Source: an uncultured Parcubacteria group bacterium | GTDB lineage: Bacteria > Patescibacteriota > Minisyncoccia > UBA6257 > 2-01-FULL-56-20 | DNA length: 49,465 nucleotides | Assembly (NCBI GenBank): GCA_903944135.1 | Contig: CAJAQL010000005.1 | Coordinates: 1 to 49,465, forward strand | Direction: 5' to 3' | Part shown: one piece after another, positions 1 through 38,984 of the stretch | Layout: every line of letters begins with the position of its first letter | Numbering within the stretch: position 1 is the first letter of the stretch | The notes under the pieces: generated by a model | What the model was told of the DNA's origin: nothing | The model's database searches: none | Seen by the model: the letters and a program-made list of their open reading frames with translations, nothing else | Position numbers and translations under genes: made by a program

Positions 1-377
1 GAACTTTATTTATTAAGGAGCCTTGCGATATAACTAAATAGGGAATGCCAAGGGGGCAATTTTGTTTAGGTGCCGTAATAATGAATGAAAACTTCTTGGG
101 CAAGCCATTTTCGGTTTTCGGAAAAGGGGTTAAAAAATGTCAGTGTGTGGATAATTTTTATACCATTTGCATAAAAAATGAGATATCATTTTCTTATGAG
201 TCCCAATAAAGAAAATTTCATTTAGATGCGAACGTGGGGTCGCAAAAGAGTGCCCTTCTGGTGGCGAGCAACTTAAGTTTTATGATATAGCCGTTATTAA
301 AAAGAAATATTATTGATCTAGAATGAAGAAGCGGAGATATTAAAAAAGTGTTGAGCAACTCTTAAGAATCTAAAAAC

Positions 378-1640
378 ATGGCACAACAAAAGATCGAGAA
401 TATTAAAGTCAGTGCATTACGATTATGGTCGGAAAATCCACGTGATCCAATAAGCCCAGAGAGCACTGACTTTGACATTATAAAACGAGCTATTAATGAT
501 AACTCTGAAGATTGGAATTTGGATAAAATGGTGAATGAGATGGGTTCTCATTACGATTTCAGTGAGATTCCTACTGTAGTATATCTCAGTGGTATACCCG
601 TTGTGTTTGATGGCAATCGCCGTGTCGCAGTGCTCAAATATCTCCAAGATAAAAAGCTCTATCTATCGCTTACGAATAAGCTTTTTCCAAAGAGCGATGG
701 TCCCAAGGAACTTTGCGAGCTGCGAGAAATACCCTGTAATGTGTGCGATAAAGATACGGCACTTACTAATATTGAAAGAAAACACGTTAATAATGGATCA
801 TGGGGAACTCTCCAGCGAGAGTACTTTTTACATCAACATCGTGGGCAGCCCAAGAGCTTATTCCTTGTTATTGAAGAGCAAACGAAACTTATTAGTACCC
901 ACCCAGATCTTAACCAGGGCTTTGTAAGAGATGAGGTTTTTACCGAGAAGAATCTCAAGGAGATTGGTTTCGGTATGCAAAACGGAAAGCTTGTTTCTGG
1001 CTATAATGACGAAGAGCAGGAAAAAATATTAGAACAGGCTGTCTTGCTTGTTGAGGATAAAGAAATAACAACTCGCAAACATAGGGGTTCATTGAAGCAG
1101 GCATTATTGGAGAAACATCCAGATAGTAAGGAAATACTTACTGTCTTTGATGGTAATAAAAAAGTTGAGATGGTGAATTGTGAATTTCCTCAGGTAGTCC
1201 GCCGAACGCAGCGCGTGACCGGTCAAGACCCTATTTTTTTTGGTAAATGCTTATCGTTAAAGCCGGGAGATGTTAATAACCTCTATCGGGATATTGTCGA
1301 TTTGTATTCCTTTTATCACAACAAAAAAAGCGGGCTTTCGAAGAGTTTTCCCGCTCTTATACGAATGTCACTTCGTTTGATTGTTGAATCGGCAGCTGTT
1401 AATGAAAAGATCGAAGATTATGTGCCTGCTCATTTCGAAGCGGCAAAGAAGGCGCTTTCTCAAGATCAAAAAACCACTCTCTCCACTCAAGAGGTGAATA
1501 CTCCAGAGAAGCTTGTTAAGCTTTTAAATATCGGTGCGCATAAATATACAGCTTCAGCAAATATGGATCAGACGATGACAATGTCTGTCATTATTGGTGT
1601 TATGCTGGAAAAGACACACCCAAAGAAGAAAAAAGGATGA
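378..1640 (+). CDS. ParB/Srx-fold (ParB-like nuclease domain) protein with about 290 aa of uncharacterised C-terminal region
   Basis: The N-terminus IKVSALRLWSENPRDPI ... VVFDGNRRVAVLKYL resembles the ParB/sulfiredoxin-fold boxes. The stop overlaps the next start (ATGA at 1637-1640). Confidence 0.6.
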   Translation: MAQQKIENIKVSALRLWSENPRDPISPESTDFDIIKRAINDNSEDWNLDKMVNEMGSHYDFSEIPTVVYLSGIPVVFDGNRRVAVLKYLQDKKLYLSLTNKLFPKSDGPKELCELREIPCNVCDKDTALTNIERKHVNNGSWGTLQREYFLHQHRGQPKSLFLVIEEQTKLISTHPDLNQGFVRDEVFTEKNLKEIGFGMQNGKLVSGYNDEEQEKILEQAVLLVEDKEITTRKHRGSLKQALLEKHPDSKEILTVFDGNKKVEMVNCEFPQVVRRTQRVTGQDPIFFGKCLSLKPGDVNNLYRDIVDLYSFYHNKKSGLSKSFPALIRMSLRLIVESAAVNEKIEDYVPAHFEAAKKALSQDQKTTLSTQEVNTPEKLVKLLNIGAHKYTASANMDQTMTMSVIIGVMLEKTHPKKKKG

Positions 1641-2497
1641 GATTTTATTCACCACTGAGATATCCTGGGGGGAAAAATAGACTCGCAAAGTTTATTGCCT
1701 TGCTTTGCGAGACGAATAGGATAACGGACCAAAAGGGACATTATGTGGAGCCATATGCAGGAGGGGCTTCAGTTGCTCTACATCTGTTGTTCGAGGGTTA
1801 TGTATCAGAAGTAACAATAAACGACAGCGATAGATCTATATATGCATTTTGGCATACCGTGCTTTATGACGCTGACAAATTGATAAACAAGATTCGCTAT
1901 GCCAGGGTCAATGAAAGAACATGGCGGAAATGTAGAGAAGTGCAACAAAAGAAAGTAGAAGCGTCACTTTTTGAACTTGGTTACTCGACCTTCTTTCTTA
2001 ATCGAACGAATGTATCAGGTATTATAGACGGAGGGATGATTGGTGGTTTTAAGCAGGCCGGGGAATATAAAATAGGTTGTCGTTTCAATAAAAAAGAGTT
2101 GATTAATAGAATACGTACAATAGCTAAATATAAAGATCGGATACATCTATTCAATCTCGACGCACTCGATTTGATAAGGCAAATCGAAAAGAATGATTCG
2201 CCAAATATTATCTTCTACTTCGATCCTCCATATTACTTAAAAGGTCCCTCGCTATATTTAAATAGTTATGACTACTCTGATCATGAAAAAGTGCGTGAAG
2301 CTATCGGTGGGATAGGAAATGCGAAGTGGCTTATTTCGTATGATGCGGCGAAGGAGATAAAGAGTCTCTATCGTGGATACAGAAAAATTGAATATTCACT
2401 TCTTCATACAGCTCGCACTGCTAGAATGGGGGAAGAGATACTCTTTCTTAGCCCTAATATGTTCATCCCCCAGATTACTGACCCAACTAAGGTATAA
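1637..2497 (+). CDS. N6-adenine DNA methyltransferase, Dam/D12 class
   Basis: Contains RYPGGKNRLAKFI, VEPYAGGASV (AdoMet-binding motif) and FYFDPPY (DPPY catalytic motif). Confidence 0.85.
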   Translation: MRFYSPLRYPGGKNRLAKFIALLCETNRITDQKGHYVEPYAGGASVALHLLFEGYVSEVTINDSDRSIYAFWHTVLYDADKLINKIRYARVNERTWRKCREVQQKKVEASLFELGYSTFFLNRTNVSGIIDGGMIGGFKQAGEYKIGCRFNKKELINRIRTIAKYKDRIHLFNLDALDLIRQIEKNDSPNIIFYFDPPYYLKGPSLYLNSYDYSDHEKVREAIGGIGNAKWLISYDAAKEIKSLYRGYRKIEYSLLHTARTARMGEEILFLSPNMFIPQITDPTKV

Positions 2498-2770
2498 ATT
2501 ATATTCTCTAGGGAGCGAAAGTATCGACAAATATCAAAATAACCAAAATCCGCATTTTATTGAAAAACCGCGGAAAATAATCCCGAAATAGATATATCTA
2601 TCATCTCTTGTTTTGCCTCCAAATTAAGACTATTCGAGGTTTTTTATAAGAAAAAAGAAAACATAAGCCAAGATGTACCCTACGAGGTATGTCTCCTTTC
2701 CGTCTTTAATTAAAATCTATATACGCATCTCAAATTTCATATCTCCCAAAAAGGAATCCCAACCCCTTAT

Positions 2771-3139
2771 TTAGCCGAATATCCCAAAGAGTTTTTTCGT
2801 TTTTCCGTCCTTGTCTAAATAGTTATAGATTGATTCCCCAAATTTCAACTGAAACGCCGTTCGTATCATTGCCAGTTTTTCTTGAACTAATTTTTCTGAG
2901 CCATCAATCATAGCTTGGAATAGCAGAGCGCTTATTCCGGGAGGGAGCAGGTTGCTTTCTAGCCTATCCTCCATCTGTTCTTTGGTTTTTTCCCAATCTT
3001 TGACATAGACACTATGGGTCTTGGCCATCTGGAAGGTTATGTCGCAATTTTTAATGAGATCTGCGGCTTGGGTCATTTCTGCCAGCTCCGCCTGCGCCAG
3101 AAAGGCTTTTAGATATTCTTGTTCTTTTTCTGAAAGCAT
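2771..3139 (-). CDS. hypothetical protein (122 aa)
   Basis: Clean ORF in the AT-rich island with no recognisable motif. Confidence 0.4.
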   Translation of the reverse strand: MLSEKEQEYLKAFLAQAELAEMTQAADLIKNCDITFQMAKTHSVYVKDWEKTKEQMEDRLESNLLPPGISALLFQAMIDGSEKLVQEKLAMIRTAFQLKFGESIYNYLDKDGKTKKLFGIFG

Positions 3140-3229
3140 GGATTTATCTTTGTAGTAGTTTTTATCGTTTTGTGTACGGAATAGATATTCTTCTTCCGTA
3201 TTATCTTTCTGAGAAAATTCCTATATTTT

Positions 3230-3748
3230 TCATTGAGGTGTCGTATTAGAGAGATGAGTTGCAGAGAATGGGCACTGTTTCCTTGTATACAGTTCAAACA
3301 AGAAAGCAGAGTTTTCGTTATAGCCAGAAGCACGAAGATTATCTATTATATTTTCTGGCAATTTGCACTCCGCATAGTTAATTCCCTTATCTACGTCGGT
3401 TGTTGTGCTTGTTATAGCTCCATTGGAATCTATATTAGCAACATACTCTCCGGCTGGAATATCACTAGGAGCACCATCTGATCGAACTGCTGTCTGCTGA
3501 TTTGTCGTTGTGCTATTTTCTATAGTAACCGATTGAGGGCTGTTTTCTACGGAATTGCTTTGATTATTTAGTAAAGGGGTAACGAGGTCACTTGATGTCG
3601 CTTGCTGTAATGCGGTGTCGGCGATCGACATCGCTTGGCTGGCAAAAGACAATGCCTGTTGTTTTAGCTGTGCATTTGCTTCAAGCCCTGGCGCGGTGAG
3701 CAGGCTCAATGCCATTTGAAGTACGAGAATAACAGATGCAAAATTCAT
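3230..3748 (-). CDS. hypothetical secreted protein (172 aa)
   Basis: Signal-peptide-like N-terminus MNFASVILVLQMALSLLTAPGLEA followed by a Ser/Thr/Asn-rich region. Confidence 0.45.
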   Translation of the reverse strand: MNFASVILVLQMALSLLTAPGLEANAQLKQQALSFASQAMSIADTALQQATSSDLVTPLLNNQSNSVENSPQSVTIENSTTTNQQTAVRSDGAPSDIPAGEYVANIDSNGAITSTTTDVDKGINYAECKLPENIIDNLRASGYNENSAFLFELYTRKQCPFSATHLSNTTPQ

Positions 3749-4038
3749 AGATTTGAAATGTTTATTTAATTTTGAAAGTGCTGGCTAGAATCGGCCTTTT
3801 TAAACACAAAGCTCCCAGCCAGATTCATATACCTTTCGGTGTACGGCCTACAACGGCGCTCTGACTAGGAGCTTTCTACGTTGTAGGACTTTGCGCCATG
3901 CCCCGATTGCTCAAGGTTTAGGCGACTCTATTAAGTTGTAATTTAATGTTGCCACGAAAAGGTTTTAAAAGCCAATACTTCTAGAGAGGAAATTTAAAGA
4001 GATAGGGTAAAATCATTAAAAAGTTAGGGAAATGGCTC

Positions 4039-4067
4039 TTGACTTTTATCAGAAAGTGTGGTACAAT
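4039..4067 (+). promoter_or_regulatory. sigma70-type promoter for the rightward island operon
   Basis: TTGACT (4039-4044), 17-nt spacer, TGgTACAAT (extended -10, TACAAT at 4062-4067). Confidence 0.55.
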
Positions 4068-4192
4068 GCAAATGCGGGTTAAAAGACGGGTTAACCTGAG
4101 TTTCTACAATATTTCAGCCTAATTATCGAGGGGGGCGATCTTTGGGATGTATTATTAACCAAAGGTCGCTTTTTAGTACTTTTAAAAAATTA

Positions 4193-4495
4193 ATGAAGTC
4201 CATTAAAATAAGATTTCAATATTTTGCCAAGGCAAAAAATGGGTGGAGCACTTATACTTGTTTTGCGTACGCAATCCAAGGTATGCATTTCAGTCGGTAT
4301 AGTGTCCGTGAGTGGTTTAATAAATTAGTCGATTTAGAGGATTATCTACAAAAAGATAAAAAAGGCGTCCTAGACTTTTTAATGATGCTAAATAATAGCC
4401 CCAGGAGCCAACTTTTAAGGGGCAAAACGATGCTAGACGCGATTATTTTATCGCAGACGGGTAAATCCTCATTTTCAAACAAAAAGGTCAAATAA
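4193..4495 (+). CDS. hypothetical protein
   Basis: The ORF opens at TTG 4142 and the first ATG is at 4193. It lies downstream of the 4039-4067 promoter. No recognisable motif. Confidence 0.35.
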   Translation: MKSIKIRFQYFAKAKNGWSTYTCFAYAIQGMHFSRYSVREWFNKLVDLEDYLQKDKKGVLDFLMMLNNSPRSQLLRGKTMLDAIILSQTGKSSFSNKKVK

Positions 4496-4562
4496 AAGAG
4501 AATTTTTATAAAAAATAAGTAGAGATGCGTTTTGCAATTTTTACATTGAGAGTCAGTTTAAT

Positions 4563-4808
4563 ATGAGGGCGATAGACAAAAAATTTTCAGTAGAAAAATT
4601 AAAGGAAATAGATTCAAAATTAGCAGATCTTTCAGAATCCGAAATTATAGAAATTCGTGACTCTCTTTACGATCTGGGCCAACTTATCTTTGATGATTGG
4701 CTGGAAAATGGGAGCGGTTCCAAATATCCGGTTAGGTCATTACCAATATTGTGGAATGATAATAAAATTAAGCTATGCCAATTACGAGCACTCAGACAAA
4801 GGGAATAA
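4563..4808 (+). CDS. hypothetical small acidic protein, overlaps the recombinase start
   Basis: 81-aa ORF whose 3' end overlaps the start of the recombinase gene by 34 nt. An accessory or directionality role is speculative only. Confidence 0.35.
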   Translation: MRAIDKKFSVEKLKEIDSKLADLSESEIIEIRDSLYDLGQLIFDDWLENGSGSKYPVRSLPILWNDNKIKLCQLRALRQRE

Positions 4809-6169
4809 TTTATTGCCGCGTTTCTTCCAAGGAACAGGTTGAGGGAACGAGCTTGGATATGCAAGAACGGGTGTGTCGTGAATGGGCCGGTAAAAGGGGC
4901 ATTGAGGTTCTAGGGGTATTTGTGGATAAGGGTGAATCTGCAAAGACAGCGAACCGGCCCGAATTTTTGAAGGCGATTGGTTTCTGCTCTAAAAAGAAAA
5001 ACAGCGTCAATTTTTTCATTGTCTACAAGGTGGATCGCTTTGCAAGAAATCAGAATGACCACGTAACAGTTCGTGAGGTATTGAAACGGGTCGGCACGGA
5101 ATTACGTTCAGTTACTGAACCGATCAATGAGGAACCGATGGGTAAGGCAATGGAAGGTATGATGTCTGTCTTTGCAGAACTCGACAATAATCTGCGGGCC
5201 GAGCGATGCAAGAATGGCATGATGGAACGAGTGAAAGAGGGTGTTTGGGTATGGCCCGCTCCGATCGGTTACTATCGGCCGCGCAAAGGTGGGAATATAG
5301 CTCCCGATCCGACAACGAAGGACTACATAACCCTTATTTTCCAAGAATGGGCCAAGGGAACGCATACCTATCGTTCCTTGGCTCAATTCATGGCTGAGCG
5401 TGGTTTCCGGACGCATCATGGCAGGAAGCCGTTTTCTCAATTTATCGAGAGCATTATCAGAAACGAGGTGTATTGCGGTTATATTAATTCGTGGGGTATG
5501 CGCGTGAAAGGTACCGGCACATTCGAGCCAATCGTCAGTGAAGAATTATTCTTACGGTGCCAGCACAAGAACAAGACCCTTATGGGGCCGCGAAAAACAG
5601 GGAATCCCGATTTTCCATTGCGACGAACAATTTGCTTAGGTTGCATGGGTTCTCTTACGGCAAGCTATTCACACGGGAATGGTGGCGCATATCCGTATTA
5701 CCATCATCATGCGCATCACAATTGCTCACTGGCGAGGTTCATTCCGAAAGAAACTTTTGAGCAGTTGTTTTTGAAATATCTCCACGGGATCTCGCCTGAT
5801 AAGAAATATGAAAAATGGTTCAAGGCGATCATGCTCGACATCTGGCAGTCGAATTTCAAGAAGTTTGACGAGATGAACGGAACCGTCCAGAAAGAGATCG
5901 GTCAGCTTGAACAGGAGCGGCAGAAAATCTTTGAGGCCCAGCGTCGCAGCGTATATAGCGACGAAGAGTTTTTAGAGCAGAAGAATCTCATCAATCAGAG
6001 GATCAACGAGAAAACTCAGCTTTTGGTCGATAACCGTATCGAAGAATTCAATATGGATGAAGCGTTAACGTATTGCTTCAACTTCGTGCGTGATAGTGCG
6101 AAAACGTGGCTTCGGTTGAAGTACGAGCCAAGGATTCGGTTCCAAAAAAATATCTGTCCCGAAAAATAG
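4775..6169 (+). CDS. large serine recombinase (resolvase/invertase catalytic domain, recombinase domain, Cys/His-rich zinc ribbon, coiled coil)
   Basis: IIYCRVSSKEQ catalytic Ser motif, VDRFARN, Cys/His cluster CLGCMG...HHHAHHNC, and C-terminal coiled-coil-like QKEIGQLEQERQKIFEAQ. Confidence 0.9.
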   Translation: MPITSTQTKGIIYCRVSSKEQVEGTSLDMQERVCREWAGKRGIEVLGVFVDKGESAKTANRPEFLKAIGFCSKKKNSVNFFIVYKVDRFARNQNDHVTVREVLKRVGTELRSVTEPINEEPMGKAMEGMMSVFAELDNNLRAERCKNGMMERVKEGVWVWPAPIGYYRPRKGGNIAPDPTTKDYITLIFQEWAKGTHTYRSLAQFMAERGFRTHHGRKPFSQFIESIIRNEVYCGYINSWGMRVKGTGTFEPIVSEELFLRCQHKNKTLMGPRKTGNPDFPLRRTICLGCMGSLTASYSHGNGGAYPYYHHHAHHNCSLARFIPKETFEQLFLKYLHGISPDKKYEKWFKAIMLDIWQSNFKKFDEMNGTVQKEIGQLEQERQKIFEAQRRSVYSDEEFLEQKNLINQRINEKTQLLVDNRIEEFNMDEALTYCFNFVRDSAKTWLRLKYEPRIRFQKNICPEK

Positions 6170-6254
6170 ACGTTCGACGGAGAAAAATTTGGAACCACGA
6201 AATTGTCTAAGATTTATGCCCTTAATCAGGAATATGACGGTGAAAAATCCAATC

Positions 6255-6329
6255 TGGTGGACCGGAGGGGAGTCGGACCCCTGACCTCCTCATTGCAAAT
6301 GAGGCGTTCTACCACTGAACTACCGGCCC
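6255..6329 (-). tRNA. tRNA-Ala (anticodon UGC), CCA encoded
   Basis: Reverse complement GGGCCGGTAGTTCAGTGGTAGAACGCCTCATTTGCAATGAGGAGGTCAGGGGTCCGACTCCCCTCCGGTCCACCA folds as a cloverleaf. It has the G3:U70 Ala identity pair and anticodon loop TTTGCAA. Confidence 0.9.
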
Positions 6330-6341
6330 GAAAACAAATCT

Positions 6342-10430: not shown

Positions 10431-10680
10431 CCGTCATTTCGAACGAAGCCTGCTTCGAGGTTTTCCGAGCGGCAAGGAATTCCTTTTTCTGTCGTCCCCG
10501 CCCCTCAACAGACTCGGGATAAACTCCGGCGGGGGATCCATGCTTCCGATCTTTTGCGTAAAGCACGGGTCCTTCAGCCAAGCCGGAGGATGACAGGAAT
10601 AAACATCGATTCCCGCTGGAACCTGTCTTCCGCACCCGCCCGTGCGGGTACAAGCTCCGGCCTACGCGGGGATGACGAGC
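10431..10680. repeat. cluster of GC-rich palindromic repeat units (degenerate type II plus extra hairpin units)
   Basis: Includes CTGTCGTCCCCGCC..CGGCGGGGGATCCATGCTTCC..AAAGCACGGG..GGAGGATGACAGG and CGCGGGGATGACGAG. The cluster lies inside the long ORF that opens at 10395. Confidence 0.75.
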
Positions 10681-17640: not shown

Positions 17641-17762
17641 TGTCGTCCCCGTGAAAACGGGGACCCAGGTTCATCTCGAAAAATTCTGGATCCCCGCCTG
17701 CGCGGGGACGACAGAAAAAGATTTGGATCGCGGGTCATCCGCCTGCGCGGAGAATGGCGGAA
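17641..17762. repeat. repeat cluster (type I plus extra hairpin); its last 75 nt are identical to 18371-18445
   Basis: TGTCGTCCCCGTGAAAACGGGGACCCAGG..CTGGATCCCCGCCTGCGCGGGGACGACAG..GGGTCATCCGCCTGCGCGGAGAATGGCGG. Confidence 0.85.
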
Positions 17763-17780
17763 GAGTCAATTCATTTGTCG

Positions 17781-17789
17781 TGTTATTAT
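17781..17789 (+). promoter_or_regulatory. extended -10 box 6 nt upstream of the recO ATG
   Basis: TGtTATTAT, aacttc, ATG 17796. Confidence 0.45.
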
Positions 17790-17795
17790 AACTTC

Positions 17796-18296
17796 ATGGA
17801 AGAATACGTGACCGATGCGATCGTTTTGAAGAAGGAACCGTCAGGGGAGAGCGATATGCGCTACGCGCTTTTTTCTGAACGGTTCGGGAAGATCTCGGCG
17901 AAGGCGAAAAGCTCACGGCGCATCGTTTCGAAGCTCGCAGGGCATCTTGAACCGGGAACCGTGGCGAAAGTCCGGTTCATCGATAAAGGTTCCGCGCAGA
18001 TCGTGGATGCCCTGAAATCTTCGCGTGTCGATATTTCACCGGCAGATCTGAGGTTTTTGAACGATCTTTTGCCGGACCTGCAGGCCGATCCTGATCTTTG
18101 GATCCAGCTTACACGTCAGGCATTTTCATGGCGCGACATTCTTCGGACGCTTGGCTGGGATCCGCGCGGCGCGGTCTGTTCGCTCTGCGGTCGTAAAGCG
18201 ACATGGTTCTTCATTCCGCGCCAGGAATTCCTCTGCGATTCCTGTGTTTTAAAAATGGGGAAGAATAAGATATCATATATAAGAATAGAGGATTAA
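17796..18296 (+). CDS. recO: DNA repair protein RecO (short form)
   Basis: OB-fold N-terminus DAIVLKKEPSGESDMRYALFSERFGKISAKAKSSRR and zinc motif CSLCG...CDSC. The ORF opens at 17754, inside a repeat. Confidence 0.65.
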   Translation: MEEYVTDAIVLKKEPSGESDMRYALFSERFGKISAKAKSSRRIVSKLAGHLEPGTVAKVRFIDKGSAQIVDALKSSRVDISPADLRFLNDLLPDLQADPDLWIQLTRQAFSWRDILRTLGWDPRGAVCSLCGRKATWFFIPRQEFLCDSCVLKMGKNKISYIRIED

Positions 18297-18308: not shown

Positions 18309-18445
18309 TGTCATGGTCCGCGGAGGCGGACGGCTCGTGCTTTCAGTTTTCTCTCTGTTTTTTAAGGCATGGATCCCCGCCTGCGCGGGGACGACAGAAA
18401 AAGATTTGGATCGCGGGTCATCCGCCTGCGCGGAGAATGGCGGAA
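18309..18445. repeat. repeat cluster (type II-like plus extra hairpin)
   Basis: TGTCATGGTCCGCGGAGGCGGACGGCTCGTGCTTT..AAGGCATGGATCCCCGCCTGCGCGGGGACGACAG..GGGTCATCCGCCTGCGCGGAGAATGGCGG. Confidence 0.85.
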
Positions 18446-27281: not shown

Positions 27282-28559
27282 TTATTCGTATCTGAGCGCT
27301 TCAATGGGGCTTTTCTTTGCGGCTTGGCGTGCGGGATAGAGGCCGAAGGCGACACCGCAGGCGGTCGAAACAAGCACGGCGATCAGAACTGCCGAAAGCG
27401 GGAACTCGAATGTCCAGCCGCCGGCGACAACGTGCGAGAGAACGAGCCATGCGAGCGCGGTAACTGCGGCTCCGACCGCGATGCCGATAATGCCGCCGAG
27501 GAAGGTGAGCATGACGGACTCGATGAGAAATTGCTGGAGAATATCGCGATCGGTTGCACCGACGGCCTTCCTGAGGCCGATCTCGCGCGTGCGTTCGACG
27601 ACGGAGACGAGCATGATGTTCATGATGCCGATGCCGCCGACCACGAGCGAGATAGATGCGATCGCTGCGAGGAAAAGCGTAAGGACCGATGTGATGCTGC
27701 CGAGCAGTGAAAGAATATCCTGTTGGGTTTCGATCGTGAAGTCGTCCTTGCTTGATGTTGTGATGCCATGATCGTGTTCCAGCACGGATTCGATGCGTGA
27801 TTTTACGAACGAGATGTCATAGGAAGAATTGGCCGATGCGAAAACGTAATTGAAATAGGTGATGCCGAGCATCTGGCTTTGAGCGACCGTGATCGGAACG
27901 ATGACGAGGTCGTCCTGATTCACGCCGCCCACTCCCGTTCCCTTGGCGGGAAGGACGCCGACGACGCGGAAGCTTGTGTTCTTGAGCCGGATATCCTTTC
28001 CGACGGGATCCATGTTCTTGCCGAAGAGCGTGGTTGCGAGATCGGATCCAATGACCGCGACGTGGTTGAAGGCCGTTACGTCGGCGGCAGTGAAGGGATA
28101 TCCGTTTGCAATGGTGAAATTCCGAACGGGGAAGAAGTTGGCTGTCGTGCCTTGATAGGTGACCGTAAGATCGTTGTCGCCGTAGACCGCGTCGGCTTGG
28201 CCGCTTACGAGCGGAACGACGGCGTCAATGGACGGCTCGCGCGAGAGCGCGTCGACATCGTTCTGAACAAGGCTCGTGATGATGATGCCTTGGGATGCGG
28301 CGGGGGACTGGAAGCGGCCATTGTTGGTGCCGCCCGGAATGATGAAAATGAGATTAGAACCAATACCCTGCACCTGGCCCAGAATGTAGTCCTGCGCCGA
28401 TTGGCCGATCGACATCAGAATGATGACCGAGGCGATGCCGATCACGATACCAAGCATGGTGAGCGCGGAGCGCATTTTGCCGTGCTGAAGGCTGTCGACC
28501 GCCGAATGGAATGAATCTTTGACGCGCATGATATATAGGTATTCGTTTCTTTTTGTCAT
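27282..28559 (-). CDS. ABC transporter permease, MacB/FtsX family
   Basis: MacB-type periplasmic domain between TM1 and TM2, and a C-terminal FtsX module with ERTREIGLRKAVGA. An alternative start is at 28529 (MRVKDSF). Confidence 0.85.
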   Translation of the reverse strand: MTKRNEYLYIMRVKDSFHSAVDSLQHGKMRSALTMLGIVIGIASVIILMSIGQSAQDYILGQVQGIGSNLIFIIPGGTNNGRFQSPAASQGIIITSLVQNDVDALSREPSIDAVVPLVSGQADAVYGDNDLTVTYQGTTANFFPVRNFTIANGYPFTAADVTAFNHVAVIGSDLATTLFGKNMDPVGKDIRLKNTSFRVVGVLPAKGTGVGGVNQDDLVIVPITVAQSQMLGITYFNYVFASANSSYDISFVKSRIESVLEHDHGITTSSKDDFTIETQQDILSLLGSITSVLTLFLAAIASISLVVGGIGIMNIMLVSVVERTREIGLRKAVGATDRDILQQFLIESVMLTFLGGIIGIAVGAAVTALAWLVLSHVVAGGWTFEFPLSAVLIAVLVSTACGVAFGLYPARQAAKKSPIEALRYE

Positions 28560-28638
28560 GGTCCCGGAAGCGGGACCATCCGTGCTTCAATTCTTCTTGA
28601 TTTCAAAAAGCACGGATTCCCGCCTGCGCGGGGATGAC
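28554..28638. repeat. GC-rich palindromic repeat, type II, overlapping the annotated start codon
   Basis: TGTCATGGTCCCGGAAGCGGGACCATCCGTGCTTC..AAAAAGCACGGATTCCCGCCTGCGCGGGGATGACC. Confidence 0.85.
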
Positions 28639-28672: not shown

Positions 28673-29401
28673 TCATTTGAAGAATTCTTCTTTCGACTTT
28701 CTTTGTTTTATGACCGGCGTATCGCTTTCAATGAGGCCGTCTTTCATGCGGATAATGCGGTTTGCGAACTCCGCAGTATAGGTTTCGTGCGTTACGAGTA
28801 TGATCGTATGTCCTTGCTTGTTCAGATCGTCGAGGATGCCAATGACCTGCGCTCCTGACTTGGAATCGAGGTTGCCGGTCGGTTCGTCGGCAAAGATGAC
28901 GTTCGGATTGTTCACGAGCGCACGGGCGATCGCGACCCGCTGTTTTTGTCCGCCTGACAGGCGTCCGGCTTCGCTCTGTATTTTTTCACCGAGGTCGACG
29001 GAACGGATCGCGTCCTCGATCATTTTCTTTCGCGCGCTGGCGGGTACGCTGTCGTTGTAGAGCAGGGGAATCTCGACATTCTCGTATACCGTAAGCCGCG
29101 AGAGAAGATTGAAAGCCTGAAAGACGAATCCCATCTCCTTGTTCCGCATGTGGGCGAGCTCTTGGTCGGACATATCGTCAATGCTCTTTCCGAAAAAGGA
29201 ATAATTGCCGCCGGTCGGGCGATCGAGGAAGCTGAGGATCTGAAGCAGGGTTGATTTGCCGGAACCCGAGGGGCCGATGATGGAGACAAAATCACCCTTA
29301 TCAATACTGAAAGAAACGCCGCGGATCGCCGACGTGACGTTATCGTCGTCGATATAATCTTTTTTAAGCTCTTTGACGTCGATCATGGGATTTTTTGTCA
29401 T
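28673..29401 (-). CDS. ABC transporter ATP-binding protein (MacB/LolD-like)
   Basis: Walker A GPSGSGKST, signature LSGGQKQRVAIARAL, Walker B VIFADEPT. An alternative start is at 29386 (MIDVKEL). Confidence 0.9.
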   Translation of the reverse strand: MTKNPMIDVKELKKDYIDDDNVTSAIRGVSFSIDKGDFVSIIGPSGSGKSTLLQILSFLDRPTGGNYSFFGKSIDDMSDQELAHMRNKEMGFVFQAFNLLSRLTVYENVEIPLLYNDSVPASARKKMIEDAIRSVDLGEKIQSEAGRLSGGQKQRVAIARALVNNPNVIFADEPTGNLDSKSGAQVIGILDDLNKQGHTIILVTHETYTAEFANRIIRMKDGLIESDTPVIKQRKSKEEFFK

Positions 29402-29486
29402 GGTCCCGGAAGCGGGACCATCCGTGCTTCAATTCTTCTTGATTTTATTTTGAAAGCACTGGTTCCCCGCCTGCGCGGGGATGACA
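29396..29486. repeat. GC-rich palindromic repeat, type II, overlapping the annotated start codon
   Basis: TGTCATGGTCCCGGAAGCGGGACCATCCGTGCTTC..GAAAGCACTGGTTCCCCGCCTGCGCGGGGATGACA. Confidence 0.85.
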
Positions 29487-31400: not shown

Positions 31401-31492
31401 TTGTTATCCCGTGCGTTGACACGGGATCCAGAAAAAAGCAGTCCTGGATCCCTGCCGGAGCCTGTACCCGCGCAGGCGGGCGCCGGAACGGC
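31401..31492. repeat. degenerate type I repeat
   Basis: TTGTTATCCCGTGCGTTGACACGGGATCCAG..CTGGATCCCTGCC..CCCGCGCAGGCGGGCGCC. Confidence 0.7.
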
Positions 31493-31508
31493 AAAACATT
31501 AATTATCC

Positions 31509-34556: not shown

Positions 34557-34570
34557 AAAGGATCTTTTTT

Positions 34571-34639
34571 CTGTTGCCCCGTTGGAAAACGGGGCAACAG
34601 ATTTTTTCTGGATTCCGTGTCGGAACACGGAACGGCAAG
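34571..34639. repeat. hairpin units of the repeat family
   Basis: CTGTTGCCCCGTTGGAAAACGGGGCAACAG and CTGGATTCCGTGTCGGAACACGGAACGGCAAG. Confidence 0.65.
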
Positions 34640-35953: not shown

Positions 35954-36031
35954 CGTCATGTCGAGCCACGCGAGACATCTCGAAGAATAGTAATTATTTC
36001 ACGAGATTCCTCGTACGGCTTGGAATGACGG
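35954..36031. repeat. type III-like repeat units
   Basis: CGTCATGTCGAGCCACGCGAGACATC and GATTCCTCGTACGGCTTGGAATGACGG. Confidence 0.65.
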
Positions 36032-36059
36032 GGGCAATGGGAGTCGGGACGCGATTTTG

Positions 36060-36068
36060 TGTTATCAT
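36060..36068 (+). promoter_or_regulatory. extended -10 box 7 nt upstream of ATG 36076
   Basis: TGtTATCAT, tattcat, ATG. Confidence 0.45.
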
Positions 36069-36075
36069 TATTCAT

Positions 36076-38103
36076 ATGATGGACGACGACATGCAGGATC
36101 TTACCCCGCTCGGGGTTTATAATTTCCGCCATCAACAGAAGAAATTCGGCATCAAGCTCGACGACCGCCGCCGGCATATTTATGTTATCGGAAAGACCGG
36201 CGTCGGGAAGACGACGCTTCTCGAGAATATGGCGATCGCCGATATGCGATCAGGCAAGGGGCTTGCGTTCGTCGATCCGCACGGCGAATCAGCGGAAAAG
36301 CTGCTCGACTTCGTGCCGGAGAACCGCCTGGACGATGTGATCTATTTCGATCCATCTGATATGGAATTTCCGATCGCGTTCAATCCGATGGAGCAGGTCG
36401 GTACCGAGTACCGGCATTTGGTGGCGTCGGGGCTCATGGGAGTGTTCAAAAAGATCTGGGCCGACGCGTGGTCGGCGCGCATGCAATATATTTTGAACAA
36501 CACCCTGCTCGCACTCCTTGAAAATCCCGGCGCGACGCTTTTGGGGATCCTTCGCATGTTCTCGAACCAGGATTATCGGAAACAGGTCGTGGACAATCTG
36601 AAGGACCCGGTCATCAAAGCATTCTGGCAGGATGAATTTTCAAAATACAGCCAGCGATTCGAGACCGAAGCCTTGGCTGCAATTCAGAACAAAGTCGGCC
36701 AGTTCGTTTCGAATCCGCTGGTCAGGAACATTCTTGGCCAGCCTCATTCGTCGCTCAACATGCGCGACATCATGGATTCTGGGAAGATATTCATCTGCAA
36801 TCTCTCCAAAGGGAAGATCGGCGAGGATAATTCCGCGCTTCTCGGCGCCATGATCATCACGCGCATGCAGCTTGCCGCAATGTCGCGCGTCGATACGCCC
36901 GAGGACAAGCGCCGCGATTTTTTCCTGTACGTCGATGAATTCCAGAACTTCGCGACGGAATCCTTTGCGAACATCTTGTCTGAAGCTCGCAAGTACCGCC
37001 TGAGCCTGGTTCTCGCGCACCAGTATATCGGCCAGCTGATGACGGGCGACAGCACGTCGGTTCGCGATGCCGTGTTCGGCAATGTGGGTACGATCATTTC
37101 GTTCCGTGTGGGTGCAGCGGATGCTGAATATCTGGAACAGGAATTTATGCCGGAATTCCTGCAGAACGATTTCGTTAATCTATCGAAAGCGAATGTTTAT
37201 ATCAAACTGATGATCGACGGCGTCTCTTCGCGCCCGTTTTCCGCGGAGACCTTGCCGCCGCAGAAGATACCGCTCGAATCCTATCGCGATGTGATCATAA
37301 AAAATTCCCGCGAGCATTACGGTACGCCGAAGAGCGTCGTTGAAACGCAGATCGCGAGCGAATGGCGCTCCGGTCCGGGCAATGTATCCGCAACAAGACC
37401 CGAACGGCAGCAAGAGAAGCGATTGTCCGAGGTGCTCGGTCCCGGCGCCCGCCAAAGAAAAGCGTCCGATGTGCGCAATGTCCGCGACGTGGAGCCTCGA
37501 CCCACGGTGGCGTTGAGGGCAGCGGTCCCGGTCGTTCAGACGGAGAAAGATCCGGTGCCGGAAAAAACCGCAGGGGATGATCCTCGTGCCAATATCGATC
37601 AGCCTTCCAAAAAAGTCATGCATCCGAACGTCGACATCGACGCCCTGAAGCAAGCCATCCATCATTCGCTAGAAGCTCGTTCAAAGAACACGGGATCTGT
37701 TTCCGCGCAAACGGCAACAGGAAGTGCTCGCGCGGAAAACACCCGTATCGTCCGAGTTCCCGTAAGCGAAACGCCCCCCGAAGAACCAGGACAGAAAAAA
37801 GAAGAGGAACTTCAGGGCGGTATGATGCATCTTTCCGATCTTTCAAAATTGCCGCCAAAAGAAAAACATGGCATCGTTACGCATAACGATGACCGCGAAA
37901 AGGGTGACCACGAAGAAGAGACTGATACCAATCAGAGCCATGATGCCAAGTCCGCAGCTATTGCATCGTCCGAAGACGAAGACCCGAATGCTTCGAATGA
38001 TGCATCACGCACGACTCAACAAAACAATTCCGGTTCAAAGATCGACATCAGCGCACTGAGAGAAGCAATTGGTGAAATCCAGAAGAAACGGCATGCCAAG
38101 TGA
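36076..38103 (+). CDS. TraD/VirD4/TrwB-like coupling-protein-type ATPase, no TM anchor, about 230 aa disordered C-terminal tail
   Basis: Walker A IGKTGVGKTT, FVDPHGE, Walker B-like FFLYVDEFQNF, ARKYRLSLVLAHQ. The tail is rich in E/K/S/T/P with two (V/I)DIxALxxAI motifs. Confidence 0.7.
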   Translation: MMDDDMQDLTPLGVYNFRHQQKKFGIKLDDRRRHIYVIGKTGVGKTTLLENMAIADMRSGKGLAFVDPHGESAEKLLDFVPENRLDDVIYFDPSDMEFPIAFNPMEQVGTEYRHLVASGLMGVFKKIWADAWSARMQYILNNTLLALLENPGATLLGILRMFSNQDYRKQVVDNLKDPVIKAFWQDEFSKYSQRFETEALAAIQNKVGQFVSNPLVRNILGQPHSSLNMRDIMDSGKIFICNLSKGKIGEDNSALLGAMIITRMQLAAMSRVDTPEDKRRDFFLYVDEFQNFATESFANILSEARKYRLSLVLAHQYIGQLMTGDSTSVRDAVFGNVGTIISFRVGAADAEYLEQEFMPEFLQNDFVNLSKANVYIKLMIDGVSSRPFSAETLPPQKIPLESYRDVIIKNSREHYGTPKSVVETQIASEWRSGPGNVSATRPERQQEKRLSEVLGPGARQRKASDVRNVRDVEPRPTVALRAAVPVVQTEKDPVPEKTAGDDPRANIDQPSKKVMHPNVDIDALKQAIHHSLEARSKNTGSVSAQTATGSARAENTRIVRVPVSETPPEEPGQKKEEELQGGMMHLSDLSKLPPKEKHGIVTHNDDREKGDHEEETDTNQSHDAKSAAIASSEDEDPNASNDASRTTQQNNSGSKIDISALREAIGEIQKKRHAK

Positions 38104-38119
38104 TTTTATGTCGAATGAT

Positions 38120-38205
38120 CTGTCATTCCGAGCCTGCGAGGAATCTTTGTTCCCGTTCCCGTGCCTGTGCCTGCCTATGCAGGTATAGGCTCCGGCGGGG
38201 ATCCG
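38120..38205. repeat. type III unit plus degenerate GC-rich repeat
   Basis: CTGTCATTCCGAGCCTGCGAGGAATC ... GGCTCCGGCGGGGATCCGGG. Confidence 0.7.
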
Positions 38206-38225
38206 GGTTTTTTTAAAACTATTTC

Positions 38226-38984
38226 ATGCAGTTTCATGTCATAACCATTTTCCCTGATATTTTCGATTCGTATATCCGCGAATCGCTTTTTAAGCGCGCG
38301 ACGGAGAATAAAATCGTTTCGGTGAATTCCTACAATCTCCGCGATTTCACGGAAGAGCGGCACCGCAAGGTAGACGATCGGCCGTTCGGCGGCGGACCGG
38401 GAATGGTTTTGCAGATCCAGCCGGTCTATGATGCCGTGAAATCTATCAAGCAAAAAGCGGCGAAACGGAAGAAAAAAAGAAAAGTGCGAACAATCCTGTT
38501 TTCGACGCGCGGCAAGAAGCTCGATGCAAAAGAAGCGAAACGATTATCGAAATACGACGATCTCATTTTGATCTGCGGCCGCTACGAAGGCGTGGACGAG
38601 CGCGTAGCGGAACATGTGGCGGATGAGGAAATCTCGATCGGGGATTACATCCTTTCCGGCGGTGAACTGCCTGCCATGGTGCTTATGGAATCCGTGAGCC
38701 GCTTCATTCCCGGATTTCTTGGGAAAGAAGAGTCTCTCGAAGAAACGAACGGTTCATTCCCGACCTATTCCCGTCCCGAAGTCTTTTATCCTTCTTCGTC
38801 ACGCGTGGCGACGCACCTGTCGCCCTCGTCCTTCGGAATGCCTCAGGGTAAACTCCGGCGAGGATCCGTGCTTTCCTCGTTATCTTCGAACAAGAGAAAA
38901 ACAACCGGTTGGCCTGTTCCCAAGATCCTCCTTTCCGGCGACCACAAAAAGATCGCCAAATGGAGAAAACAACAGTCTGACTAA
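38226..38984 (+). CDS. trmD: tRNA (guanine37-N1)-methyltransferase with a 40-aa insertion in the interdomain linker
   Basis: FDVITIFP-like MQFHVITIFPDIF, DDRPFGGGPGMVL, ICGRYEGVDERV, SIGDYILSGGELPAMV, YSRPEVF ... VPKILLSGDHKKIAKWR. Confidence 0.9.
   Translation: MQFHVITIFPDIFDSYIRESLFKRATENKIVSVNSYNLRDFTEERHRKVDDRPFGGGPGMVLQIQPVYDAVKSIKQKAAKRKKKRKVRTILFSTRGKKLDAKEAKRLSKYDDLILICGRYEGVDERVAEHVADEEISIGDYILSGGELPAMVLMESVSRFIPGFLGKEESLEETNGSFPTYSRPEVFYPSSSRVATHLSPSSFGMPQGKLRRGSVLSSLSSNKRKTTGWPVPKILLSGDHKKIAKWRKQQSD
38787..38906 (+). repeat. repeat-family sequence inserted in frame within trmD
   Basis: CTGTCGCCCTCGTCCTTCGGAATGCCTCAGGGTAAACTCCGGCGAGGATCCGTGCTTTCC closely parallels the intergenic copy at 10489-10556. 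Confidence 0.7.

Follow-up and report, generated by a model that had tools for sequence, protein, structure and literature searches.

How does the gene for an essential tRNA-modifying enzyme come to hold 40 codons that have no counterpart in the solved structures of that enzyme? The gene is trmD, which encodes tRNA (guanine37-N1)-methyltransferase, and it lies on a 49,465-nt contig (CAJAQL010000005.1, assembly GCA_903944135.1) from an uncultured Parcubacteria group bacterium; this whole stretch is called the window below. An earlier note on this DNA had proposed that a palindromic repeat was absorbed in frame into trmD. Alignment with the repeat family supports the uptake of such a repeat, but the picture of a single event did not survive, and the site is instead a recurrent, hypervariable hot spot. 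We put the probability at roughly 0.8 that the insert is DNA of the CGTC-tagged class of repetitive extragenic palindromic (REP) sequences, translated as a tolerated, disordered loop and quickly reshaped at a permissive site.

TrmD is intact and carries an expanded loop

We identified the open reading frame (ORF) at 38226–38984 as trmD by family, motifs and fold. It matches Pfam family PF01746 (tRNA_m1G_MT) with E = 1.5e-49, and HMMER pairs its product with E. coli TrmD (1p9p) at E = 7e-55. The closest Foldseek matches of its AlphaFold2 (AF2) model are the H. influenzae TrmD structures 4mcb and 4yvi. In an alignment of 35 close homologues (A1), the sequences DDRPFGGGPGM, CGRYEGVDER and SIGDYILSGGELPA are invariant, leaving the S-adenosylmethionine (AdoMet)-binding and catalytic motifs intact. 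The product therefore has the Pfam family, the conserved motifs and the fold that define a TrmD of the SPOUT class, and the reading frame is whole, just as the earlier note had stated. The named homologues of this protein come from Patescibacteria. Related contigs that we fetched keep the gene order TraG-like, trmD, comEC; the trmD loci compared here are therefore orthologous. The Patescibacteria TrmDs (the window protein and P0001–P0120) stop about 40 residues before the end of E. coli TrmD, with residues 228–251 of the query corresponding to 195–218 of the 261-residue 1p9p.

The HMMER match between the window protein and 1p9p is split, residues 3–187 aligning with 9–193 and residues 228–251 with 195–218. 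Because the match breaks at 187/228, residues 188–227 lack a counterpart in 1p9p, where the insertion site is a single residue between L193 and G195. How much is extra depends on the comparator. Measured against solved structures, the 40 additional residues reported earlier, and their span 38787–38906, are exact; measured against the ground state of the clade, only 34 codons are in excess. The segment from RP to LLSGDH has 50 residues in the window and 16 (EVFxP-KKGKRWxVPKV) in the closest insert-free relatives.

The AF2 model, built with the 35-sequence alignment, has a confident SPOUT domain. Its residues 192–224 have a predicted local distance difference test (pLDDT) value below 50, and this stretch is flanked by short-strand residues at 186–187 and 229–230. 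The model thus predicts that the insert protrudes, without ordered structure, from the tip of a small beta-hairpin that directly follows YxRP, where the C-terminal domain begins. The TrmD C-terminal domain binds the tRNA anticodon arm. The disordered loop that the earlier note had allowed for is what AF2 predicts, and its idea of a tolerant site stands; its placement in the linker between the two domains needs revision, the site being the hairpin tip just described and not the catalytic inter-domain linker itself.

A CGTC-tagged repeat family fills the spacers of the window

The window carries 41 copies of a short palindromic repeat in 49 kb by covariance model, 30 of which form 15 inverted (+,−) doublets with their tails facing each other. 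Each unit opens with a T-rich leader and GTC; a stem of 8 or 9 bp then encloses a loop of 3–6 nt, and CC follows, continued by AGG or GTGCTT. GTC is invariant in 25 aligned copies, and the base before it is mostly T and sometimes C. The stems are of 8 bp (GTCCCCGC type) or 9 bp (ATGGTCCCG type) and open with (G/A)T…A(T/C). The CC that follows the stem is likewise invariant, with A or G after it (CCAGG or CCGTGCTT). Once gene starts had been corrected from Pfam matches, the trmD copy was the sole intragenic one of the 41. The doublet at 10485–10600, for instance, is taken as extragenic because the N_methyl motif of the downstream ORF begins about 290 nt into the longest ORF. An Rfam scan of the window returned no family for the repeats; only two tRNAs and a LOOT RNA matched.

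These features correspond to a known superfamily. As defined in a published survey, CGTC-tagged REPs have an unpaired CGTC tag (often TGTC or CCTC), a stem of 8–9 bp opening with A-T pairs, a loop of 4–5 nt and an unpaired CCA tail; most form inverted dimers, in many cases with an unlike partner, and copies occasionally lie within genes (PMC3733652). Judged from its sequence, the window family belongs to this superfamily, since tag, stem, loop, tail and dimers all fit.

A long-loop subfamily can be recognized beside the short-loop units. Its loop of 25–40 nt ends in a conserved GG(G)(A)TA.A..CTCCGG directly before the 3′ stem, and this arrangement is kept between genomes. About six long-loop copies are available in all (Table 1), too few for a separate model. 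One of them lies in the spacer just upstream of trmD, at 38143–38216, and forms an inverted-repeat pair (I1) with 31443–31494. The copy within trmD also has a long loop; it belongs to a variant with loops of 25–30 nt that end in GGG(A)TAAACTCCGG.

The core of the insert aligns end to end with intergenic repeats

We built two covariance models of the family. The first, made from 13 short-loop copies, missed the trmD copy entirely, and the second (R2), made from 29 window copies that are again mostly short-loop, gave it only 9.8 bits. Because neither model captured this copy well, we compared it directly with other copies and with shuffled sequence. The insert at 38816–38873 aligns over 58 nt, loop included, with the intergenic repeat at 10488–10545, with a Smith-Waterman score of 43; dinucleotide shuffles scored 15.0 ± 2.4, and none of 2000 reached 43. 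Against an intergenic copy in the related contig L081 the same insert scored 45, again unmatched in 2000 shuffles. The parallel with the repeat at 10489–10556, which the earlier note had drawn, is thereby confirmed for some 58 nt out of 120.

The trmD copy itself has the TGTC tag and the CCGTGCTT tail, whereas its 7-position stem and 30-nt loop fall outside the 8–9 bp and 4–5 nt of the superfamily. We take it as a probable REP because it aligns end to end with the long-loop copies and because a canonical REP occupies the homologous position in contig L087. Around this core lie a weak 5′ hairpin (38796–38815), possibly a degenerate older repeat, and a 3′ tail (38874–38894), possibly a former doublet spacer.

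One codon boundary holds many different inserts

To place the insert among its relatives, we scored the loop in 118 closest TrmD homologues, all those in which it could be scored. The plain 16-residue loop is found in 84, and about 30, or roughly a quarter, are expanded, up to 54 residues. Every expansion lies at the same codon boundary, between Pro and the basic KKGKRW stretch. Many of the expanded loops read as translated REPs, as in SLSFPRKRESS, SSFPRKRES, ESFPRRRES and SSLSSPRRRGS. The window insert itself proves to be composite and remodelled when aligned with orthologues. A scan of genome contigs with the full TrmD alignment gave, among the matches listed, only distant TrmDs (≤56% identity), and among these the loop measures 15–16 residues in Patescibacteria but 11 in other phyla.

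Ten alleles could be read as DNA: those of the window and of L087, L081, L082, L088, L089, L090, L156, L167 and L168. In all ten the REP lies on the coding strand and in one shared, open frame (xxG TCR …, the frame that yields SFPRKRES), and at least five stem sequences are represented. R2, although trained on the window, recognizes the REPs in the trmD loops of other contigs, with 44.6 bits for L081 (E = 7.5e-08), 42.3 for L090, 31.1 for L089, 24.1 for L087 and 23.4 for L082. The loops of L167 and L168 hold GTCATTCCCGCGCA(A/G)GCGGGAATCC.

The closest orthologue, in L087 (protein P0002), has a core 92.5% identical to that of the window and a homologous insert between the same flanking sequences. 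The REP at the homologous position is canonical, its 8-bp stem being perfect and its loop 4 nt long (TGTCGCCCTCGCGGCGGCGAGGGTCCGTGCTT; E = 0.0014 with R2). Relative to the window, L087 has an extra in-frame 5′ piece, which measures 27 nt in the multiple alignment and 21 nt when the two are aligned as a pair. The window in turn has 24 nt more within the REP loop in both alignments, the difference between a 4-nt hairpin loop and a 30-nt loop. Where the two inserts align, their identity is 88.5%; elsewhere in the gene it is 87%. Moreover, the window, L087 and L081 share their outer junctions (…CCT TCT T… and …AAAACAAAGGGTTGG) despite carrying different REP subtypes. The simplest reading of these junctions is that a single older insertion has had its interior replaced or remodelled.

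Very different inserts also sit in proteins with closely similar cores. The cores of P0001 (the window), P0002 and P0003 are 91–93% identical, as are those of P0006 and P0019 and of P0010 and P0017. P0018, which has an insert, and P0023, which has none, are 89.6% identical. In a neighbour-joining (NJ) tree of the 210-residue core, insert-bearing TrmDs occupy at least 8–10 places, interleaved with plain loops. This scatter does not prove independent gains, because the tree is weak. Repeated entry and remodelling in place may both contribute.

We then compared loci of at least 8 kb for REPs elsewhere in the contig. Four of the six non-redundant loci with a loop of at least 24 residues have them (22 hits in 98 kb), as do 2 of the 16 short-loop loci (3 hits in 281 kb). 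The other two long-loop loci, which lack REPs, carry Lys-rich expansions that do not look like REP sequence, and expansions of this kind occur in other Patescibacteria too. Together with the 11-residue loop of other phyla, they indicate that the loop is generally permissive, which explains part of the hot-spot behaviour. The earlier note had considered that orthologues without the repeat family might have the same insert; the outcome was the reverse, repeat-free loci being without a REP insert.

No REP copy was detectable in L084 (16.8 kb), L097, L105, L112, L114, L117–L119, L128, L133, L137 or L140. The family is therefore very uneven among close relatives, as has been reported for REPs in other phyla.

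Frame is kept throughout. Differences between the alleles, those between the window and L087 included, are all multiples of three. No frameshifted trmD was found among 80 related stretches, and the five loci missed by our motif scan proved to be motif variants only.

The repeat family groups with some Rickettsia palindromic elements

Likeness to Rickettsia palindromic elements (RPEs) had been suggested for this insert, and it goes beyond resemblance. In the published survey, CGTC-1 comprises Neisseria dRS3 and R. conorii RPE-6, and CGTC-4 is RPE-4 (Di Nocera, De Gregorio, Rocco 2013, PMC3733652). With RPE-6 and RPE-4 inside the superfamily, the Rickettsia comparison is not just an analogy. The window family shares with CGTC REPs the tag, stems of 8–9 bp starting with A-T (or G-T) pairs, loops of 4–5 nt, a CCA/CCG tail, inverted dimers with differing partners, a location in transcribed spacers and occasional in-frame intragenic copies. 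Even the peptide is shared, since SFPRKRES is encoded both by the TrmD orthologues P0028 and P0083 and within proteins of R. conorii. From the R. conorii peptides of CGTC-1 dimers (SFLRKQES…DSRFRGND) we infer the same doublet arrangement.

The differences are equally clear. Patescibacteria lie outside the five phyla of the survey, and TrmD is not among the host genes listed there (PMC3733652). The long-loop variant (25–30 nt) to which the trmD copy in the window belongs exceeds the published 4–5 nt. Further, R. conorii proteins contain peptides of this REP class in several frames and in both orientations (SFPRKRES, VIPAKAGI, CYSRESRNP), whereas here a single site is occupied across many lineages, without exception on one strand and in one frame. 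Since frames and orientations vary in R. conorii, the uniformity in TrmD is a property of the site or its history and not of the repeat.

Ogata and colleagues reportedly found RPE-1 elements in frame within conserved, often essential genes. Features in common with the RPE-1 type (Ogata et al. 2000) are selfish palindromic repeats placed in frame, at surface-exposed sites, in conserved and often essential genes, with tRNA-modification enzymes among the hosts. The trmD copy behaves as an RPE-like in-frame insertion: it is a dispersed repeat within a conserved ORF, keeps the frame, is absent from orthologues and, in the predicted structure, lies in a surface loop. RPE-1 differs in its size of 100–150 bp, against a unit of about 30–60 nt and some remnants here, and in its unrelated sequence. 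Copies of RPE-1 that occupy orthologous sites also tend to be stable from species to species, whereas the trmD site is hypervariable.

Two other kinds of repeat were compared. GTAG REPs and REPINs, which are mobilised by REP-associated tyrosine transposases (RAYTs, IS200-like Y1 transposases), likewise are short hairpin repeats that form inverted doublets and abound in spacers. The tag of the window family is TGTC or CGTC instead of GTAG, and there is no RAYT-like ORF among the 40 window ORFs scanned; on both counts the family does not fit a REPIN/RAYT system. Bacterial miniature inverted-repeat transposable elements in ORFs are also small non-autonomous repeats able to add peptide segments (PMC10969869); the window repeats differ from them in having neither transposon terminal inverted repeats nor a clear target-site duplication.

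How the loop was filled

On the explanation we favour, a REP of the genome's own family would have entered the codon boundary between Pro and KKGKRW, in the short beta-hairpin loop after YxRP. The insert would be transcribed and translated with trmD as a Ser/Pro/Arg/Gly-rich disordered surface loop, which the enzyme would tolerate. Such a loop may have been filled repeatedly, once anciently, or both, and then remodelled through replacement by or copying from REP variants and through in-frame indels. Replacement and indels of this kind would make the insert change far faster than the rest of TrmD.

Several observations weigh against this explanation. R2 gives the trmD copy an E value of 7.2 in the 134 kb searched, and the copy is degenerate, with one C/A mismatch and one G-T pair in its seven-position stem and a loop of 30 nt. 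The RNA fold of the window insert is no better than that of shuffles (z = −0.64, or −1.0 for a 151-nt region). About half of the 102 extra nt cannot be assigned to the repeat, some 58 nt being demonstrably REP. The association of long loops with REPs elsewhere in the contig (Fisher p = 0.025) covers few loci and ignores the relatedness between them. The alleles were found by protein-level searches, which favour in-frame cases, and for this reason the open frames are supportive of translation but not decisive. Finally, neutral tolerance of random insertions predicts neither the uniform strand and frame nor the excess of a Tyr or His codon (giving ATCC) before Pro, which is 9/18 versus 2/90, uncorrected for relatedness.

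The single strand and frame, the Tyr/His enrichment and the likeness of the empty site to a REP leader plus tail suggest directed insertion or selection on the peptide. If insertion were directed, CGTC REPs would enter trmD by a site- and orientation-specific mechanism and the alleles would be independent insertions, a real possibility but a doubtful one. The native sequence GTTTTC-AT(T)CC-AAAAAAGG resembles the leader and tail of a REP, and the codons giving ATCC are enriched before the insert. The scatter of inserts over the NJ tree among 16-residue loops, the presence of at least five REP stem types at one codon boundary, and the contrast between ten uniform alleles and the varied R. conorii copies point the same way, as does the confinement of intragenic REPs to trmD, both in the window and in those parts of L081 and L082 that were sampled. 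Yet the junctions shared by the window, L087 and L081 fit one old insertion remodelled in place, no clean target-site duplication is seen, and homologous recombination between relatives could spread alleles over a tree that a 210-residue protein supports poorly. Models of simple target-site duplication or of precise excision were rejected, because the ATCC copies on either side of many inserts are spaced by a distance that three does not divide. No dedicated transposase or mobilising activity is reported for CGTC REPs in the literature, and the 40 ORFs scanned in the window (49 kb of genome) include no Y1/IS200/RAYT-type gene or other candidate mobilising enzyme. Selection on the peptide would mean that a Ser/Arg/Lys-rich REP peptide is kept since it extends the basic KKGKRW loop and improves tRNA binding or another property of TrmD, which we consider distinctly unlikely. 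The C-terminal domain, shortened by about 40 residues relative to E. coli, might be compensated by the loop; of six open frames the one used is the most hydrophilic and basic; the inserts of the window and L087 are as similar as the gene around them, with all indels in frame; and other Patescibacteria expand the same loop with Lys-rich sequence that is not REP. Against this, neither the sequence nor the length of the insert is conserved even at 91–93% core identity, most relatives manage with 16 residues, and AF2 shows no structure in the insert. Stated in their strong forms, that the TrmD loop is a site-, strand- and frame-specific landing pad for CGTC REPs or that its basic peptide has been co-opted for tRNA binding, these ideas seem rather unlikely.

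Two further explanations dispense with the peptide or with the repeat. In one, the hairpin acts on the operon transcript, in its processing, its stability or pausing before CYTH-comEC, and the peptide is a by-product. Perfect 8-bp stems are indeed kept in the coding sequence of L081, L087, L090 and L089 (z from −1.7 to −3.3), and CGTC-class REPs usually lie in transcribed spacers and have had an RNA function proposed for them in the literature. Recent insertion or copying from other REPs explains perfect stems equally well, however, the stem of the window copy is weakened and no more stable than shuffles, and many orthologues have no hairpin at all; a role in RNA is very unlikely. The other would make the insert an ancestral low-complexity linker expansion that resembles repeats, or else an assembly artefact, given that repeats are classic misassembly sites and that the family model barely scores the window copy. 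This is scarcely credible and already largely refuted by the 58-nt alignment to intergenic copies and by canonical REPs at the homologous position in orthologues. The flanks are continuous in-frame coding sequence, and the identical 252-residue TrmD recurs on several contigs of 20–50 kb, including a 45,054-nt contig of another assembly, while homologous inserts occur in independent Joint Genome Institute (JGI) samples. The identical protein and the independent inserts both argue against misassembly. We therefore retain the reading of a translated CGTC-type REP in a tolerant and fast-changing loop.

Coordinates and other features of the window

Table 1. Features of the trmD insert and of related repeats. 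Positions refer to the window unless another contig is named.
Feature	Position	Strand	Description	Basis
trmD coding sequence	38226..38984	+	252 aa, tRNA (guanine37-N1)-methyltransferase, intact	ORF list, Pfam, PDB, Foldseek
Segment without counterpart in solved TrmD structures	38787..38906	+	residues 188-227	HMMER against PDB, AF2
34-codon excess	38793..38894	+	excess over the 16-residue ground-state loop (SSSRVATHLSPSSFGMPQGKLRRGSVLSSLSSNK)	alignments A1 and A7, linker tables
Weak 5′ hairpin	38796..38815	+	TCGTCACGCGTGGCGACGCA; conserved with L087; fold no better than shuffles	
Long-loop CGTC-type REP copy	38818..38873	+		regex and hairpin scans, end-to-end alignment
REP tag	38818-38821	+	TGTC	
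REP 5′ stem	38822-38828	+	GCCCTCG	
REP loop	38829-38858	+	30 nt, ending GGGTAAACTCCGG	
REP 3′ stem	38859-38865	+	CGAGGAT	
REP tail	38866-38873	+	CCGTGCTT	
Insert 3′ tail	38874..38894	+	TCCTCGTTATCTTCGAACAAG; common to L087; no counterpart in L081, L082, L084	
Predicted tryptic peptide of the window TrmD			VATHLSPSSFGMPQGK	
Intergenic REP doublet 5′ of pilin-like gene	10485..10600	+/−	+ copy 10485-10551 (30.9 bits, E = 2.6e-05); − copy 10555-10600 (15.8 bits)	R2
Long-loop REP copy in spacer just upstream of trmD	38143..38216	+	…GGTATAGGCTCCGGCGGGGATCCGGG TTTTTTT; 17.5 bits, E = 0.073	R2
Long-loop REP members, window	10485-10551; 31443-31494 (−); 38143-38216; 38818-38873			
Long-loop REP members, relatives	L081 7646-7711; L082 10585-10651; L154 2591-2681 (−)			

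Three other repeat arrangements stand out in the window. Identical 76-nt direct repeats of two REP units each (17687–17762 and 18370–18445, 100% identity, spacing 683 nt) bracket the recO-like ORF at 17754–18293 and may have arisen by REP-mediated duplication or by recent copying. Identical 54-nt copies, each a REP plus doublet spacer, lie at 28550–28603 and 29392–29445 (100%) around an ABC-transporter ATPase gene (28676–29401, − strand). Between a sigma-70-like gene and the next ORF, a perfect palindrome, TTCTGTTGCCCCGTTGGAAAACGGGGCAACAGA, spans 34563–34603; it scores with the family on both strands and may be a REP-derived bidirectional terminator.

The window reads as ordinary chromosomal DNA of a member of the Patescibacteria that is Paceibacteria/Minisyncoccia-like. 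Its gene content includes type IV pilus genes, pilins, a class II aminoacyl-tRNA synthetase, an EPSP-synthase-family (MurA-like) gene, recR and recO, together with ABC transporters, the TraG/VirD4-like ATPase, trmD, a CYTH protein, comEC and a metallo-beta-lactamase-fold protein. The TraG/VirD4-like ATPase 5′ of trmD (36025–38103, + strand) has 692 residues in the window, 683 in L081 and 538–549 in L082, L084 and L167; the extra C-terminal stretch of about 140 residues in the window protein is of low complexity.

The left end of the window is distinct in composition. Positions 1–6330 have a GC content of 37–41%, against about 50–55% elsewhere, and encode a D12-class adenine DNA methyltransferase (1637–2494) and a large serine recombinase (4775–6166). 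The LOOT RNA match falls within this region (3809–3924, − strand; Rfam RF03000, 56.4 bits against a gathering threshold of 46.4, E = 4.8e-08), which ends beside a tRNA gene (6258–6329, − strand). It looks like a mobile element integrated at a tRNA.

Implications

In-frame REP and RPE insertions in conserved genes, tRNA-modification enzymes included, are well known. The trmD insert extends them to Patescibacteria (the candidate phyla radiation) and to TrmD, which is essential and a target for antibiotics; our literature search returned no description of REPs either in this radiation or in TrmD. The host phylum and the host gene appear to be new, as does the extent to which inserts recur and turn over at a single codon boundary. 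For the enzyme, the alleles suggest that a surface loop of TrmD can carry 10–38 extra residues, predicted to be disordered, a tolerance that may also help protein engineering. For annotation, such trmD genes should not be called pseudogenes, and SFPRKRES-like REP peptides should not be read as domains.

For the repeats themselves, recurrence at one site, on one strand and in one frame, with differing REPs in cores more than 90% identical, is unusual and could help to explain how CGTC REPs, which have no known dedicated transposase, spread or are copied. If the loop is a landing pad, its filled, empty and remodelled alleles would give the first usable target rule for these elements and a natural record of REP-to-REP replacement, and might lead to the activity that moves CGTC REPs.

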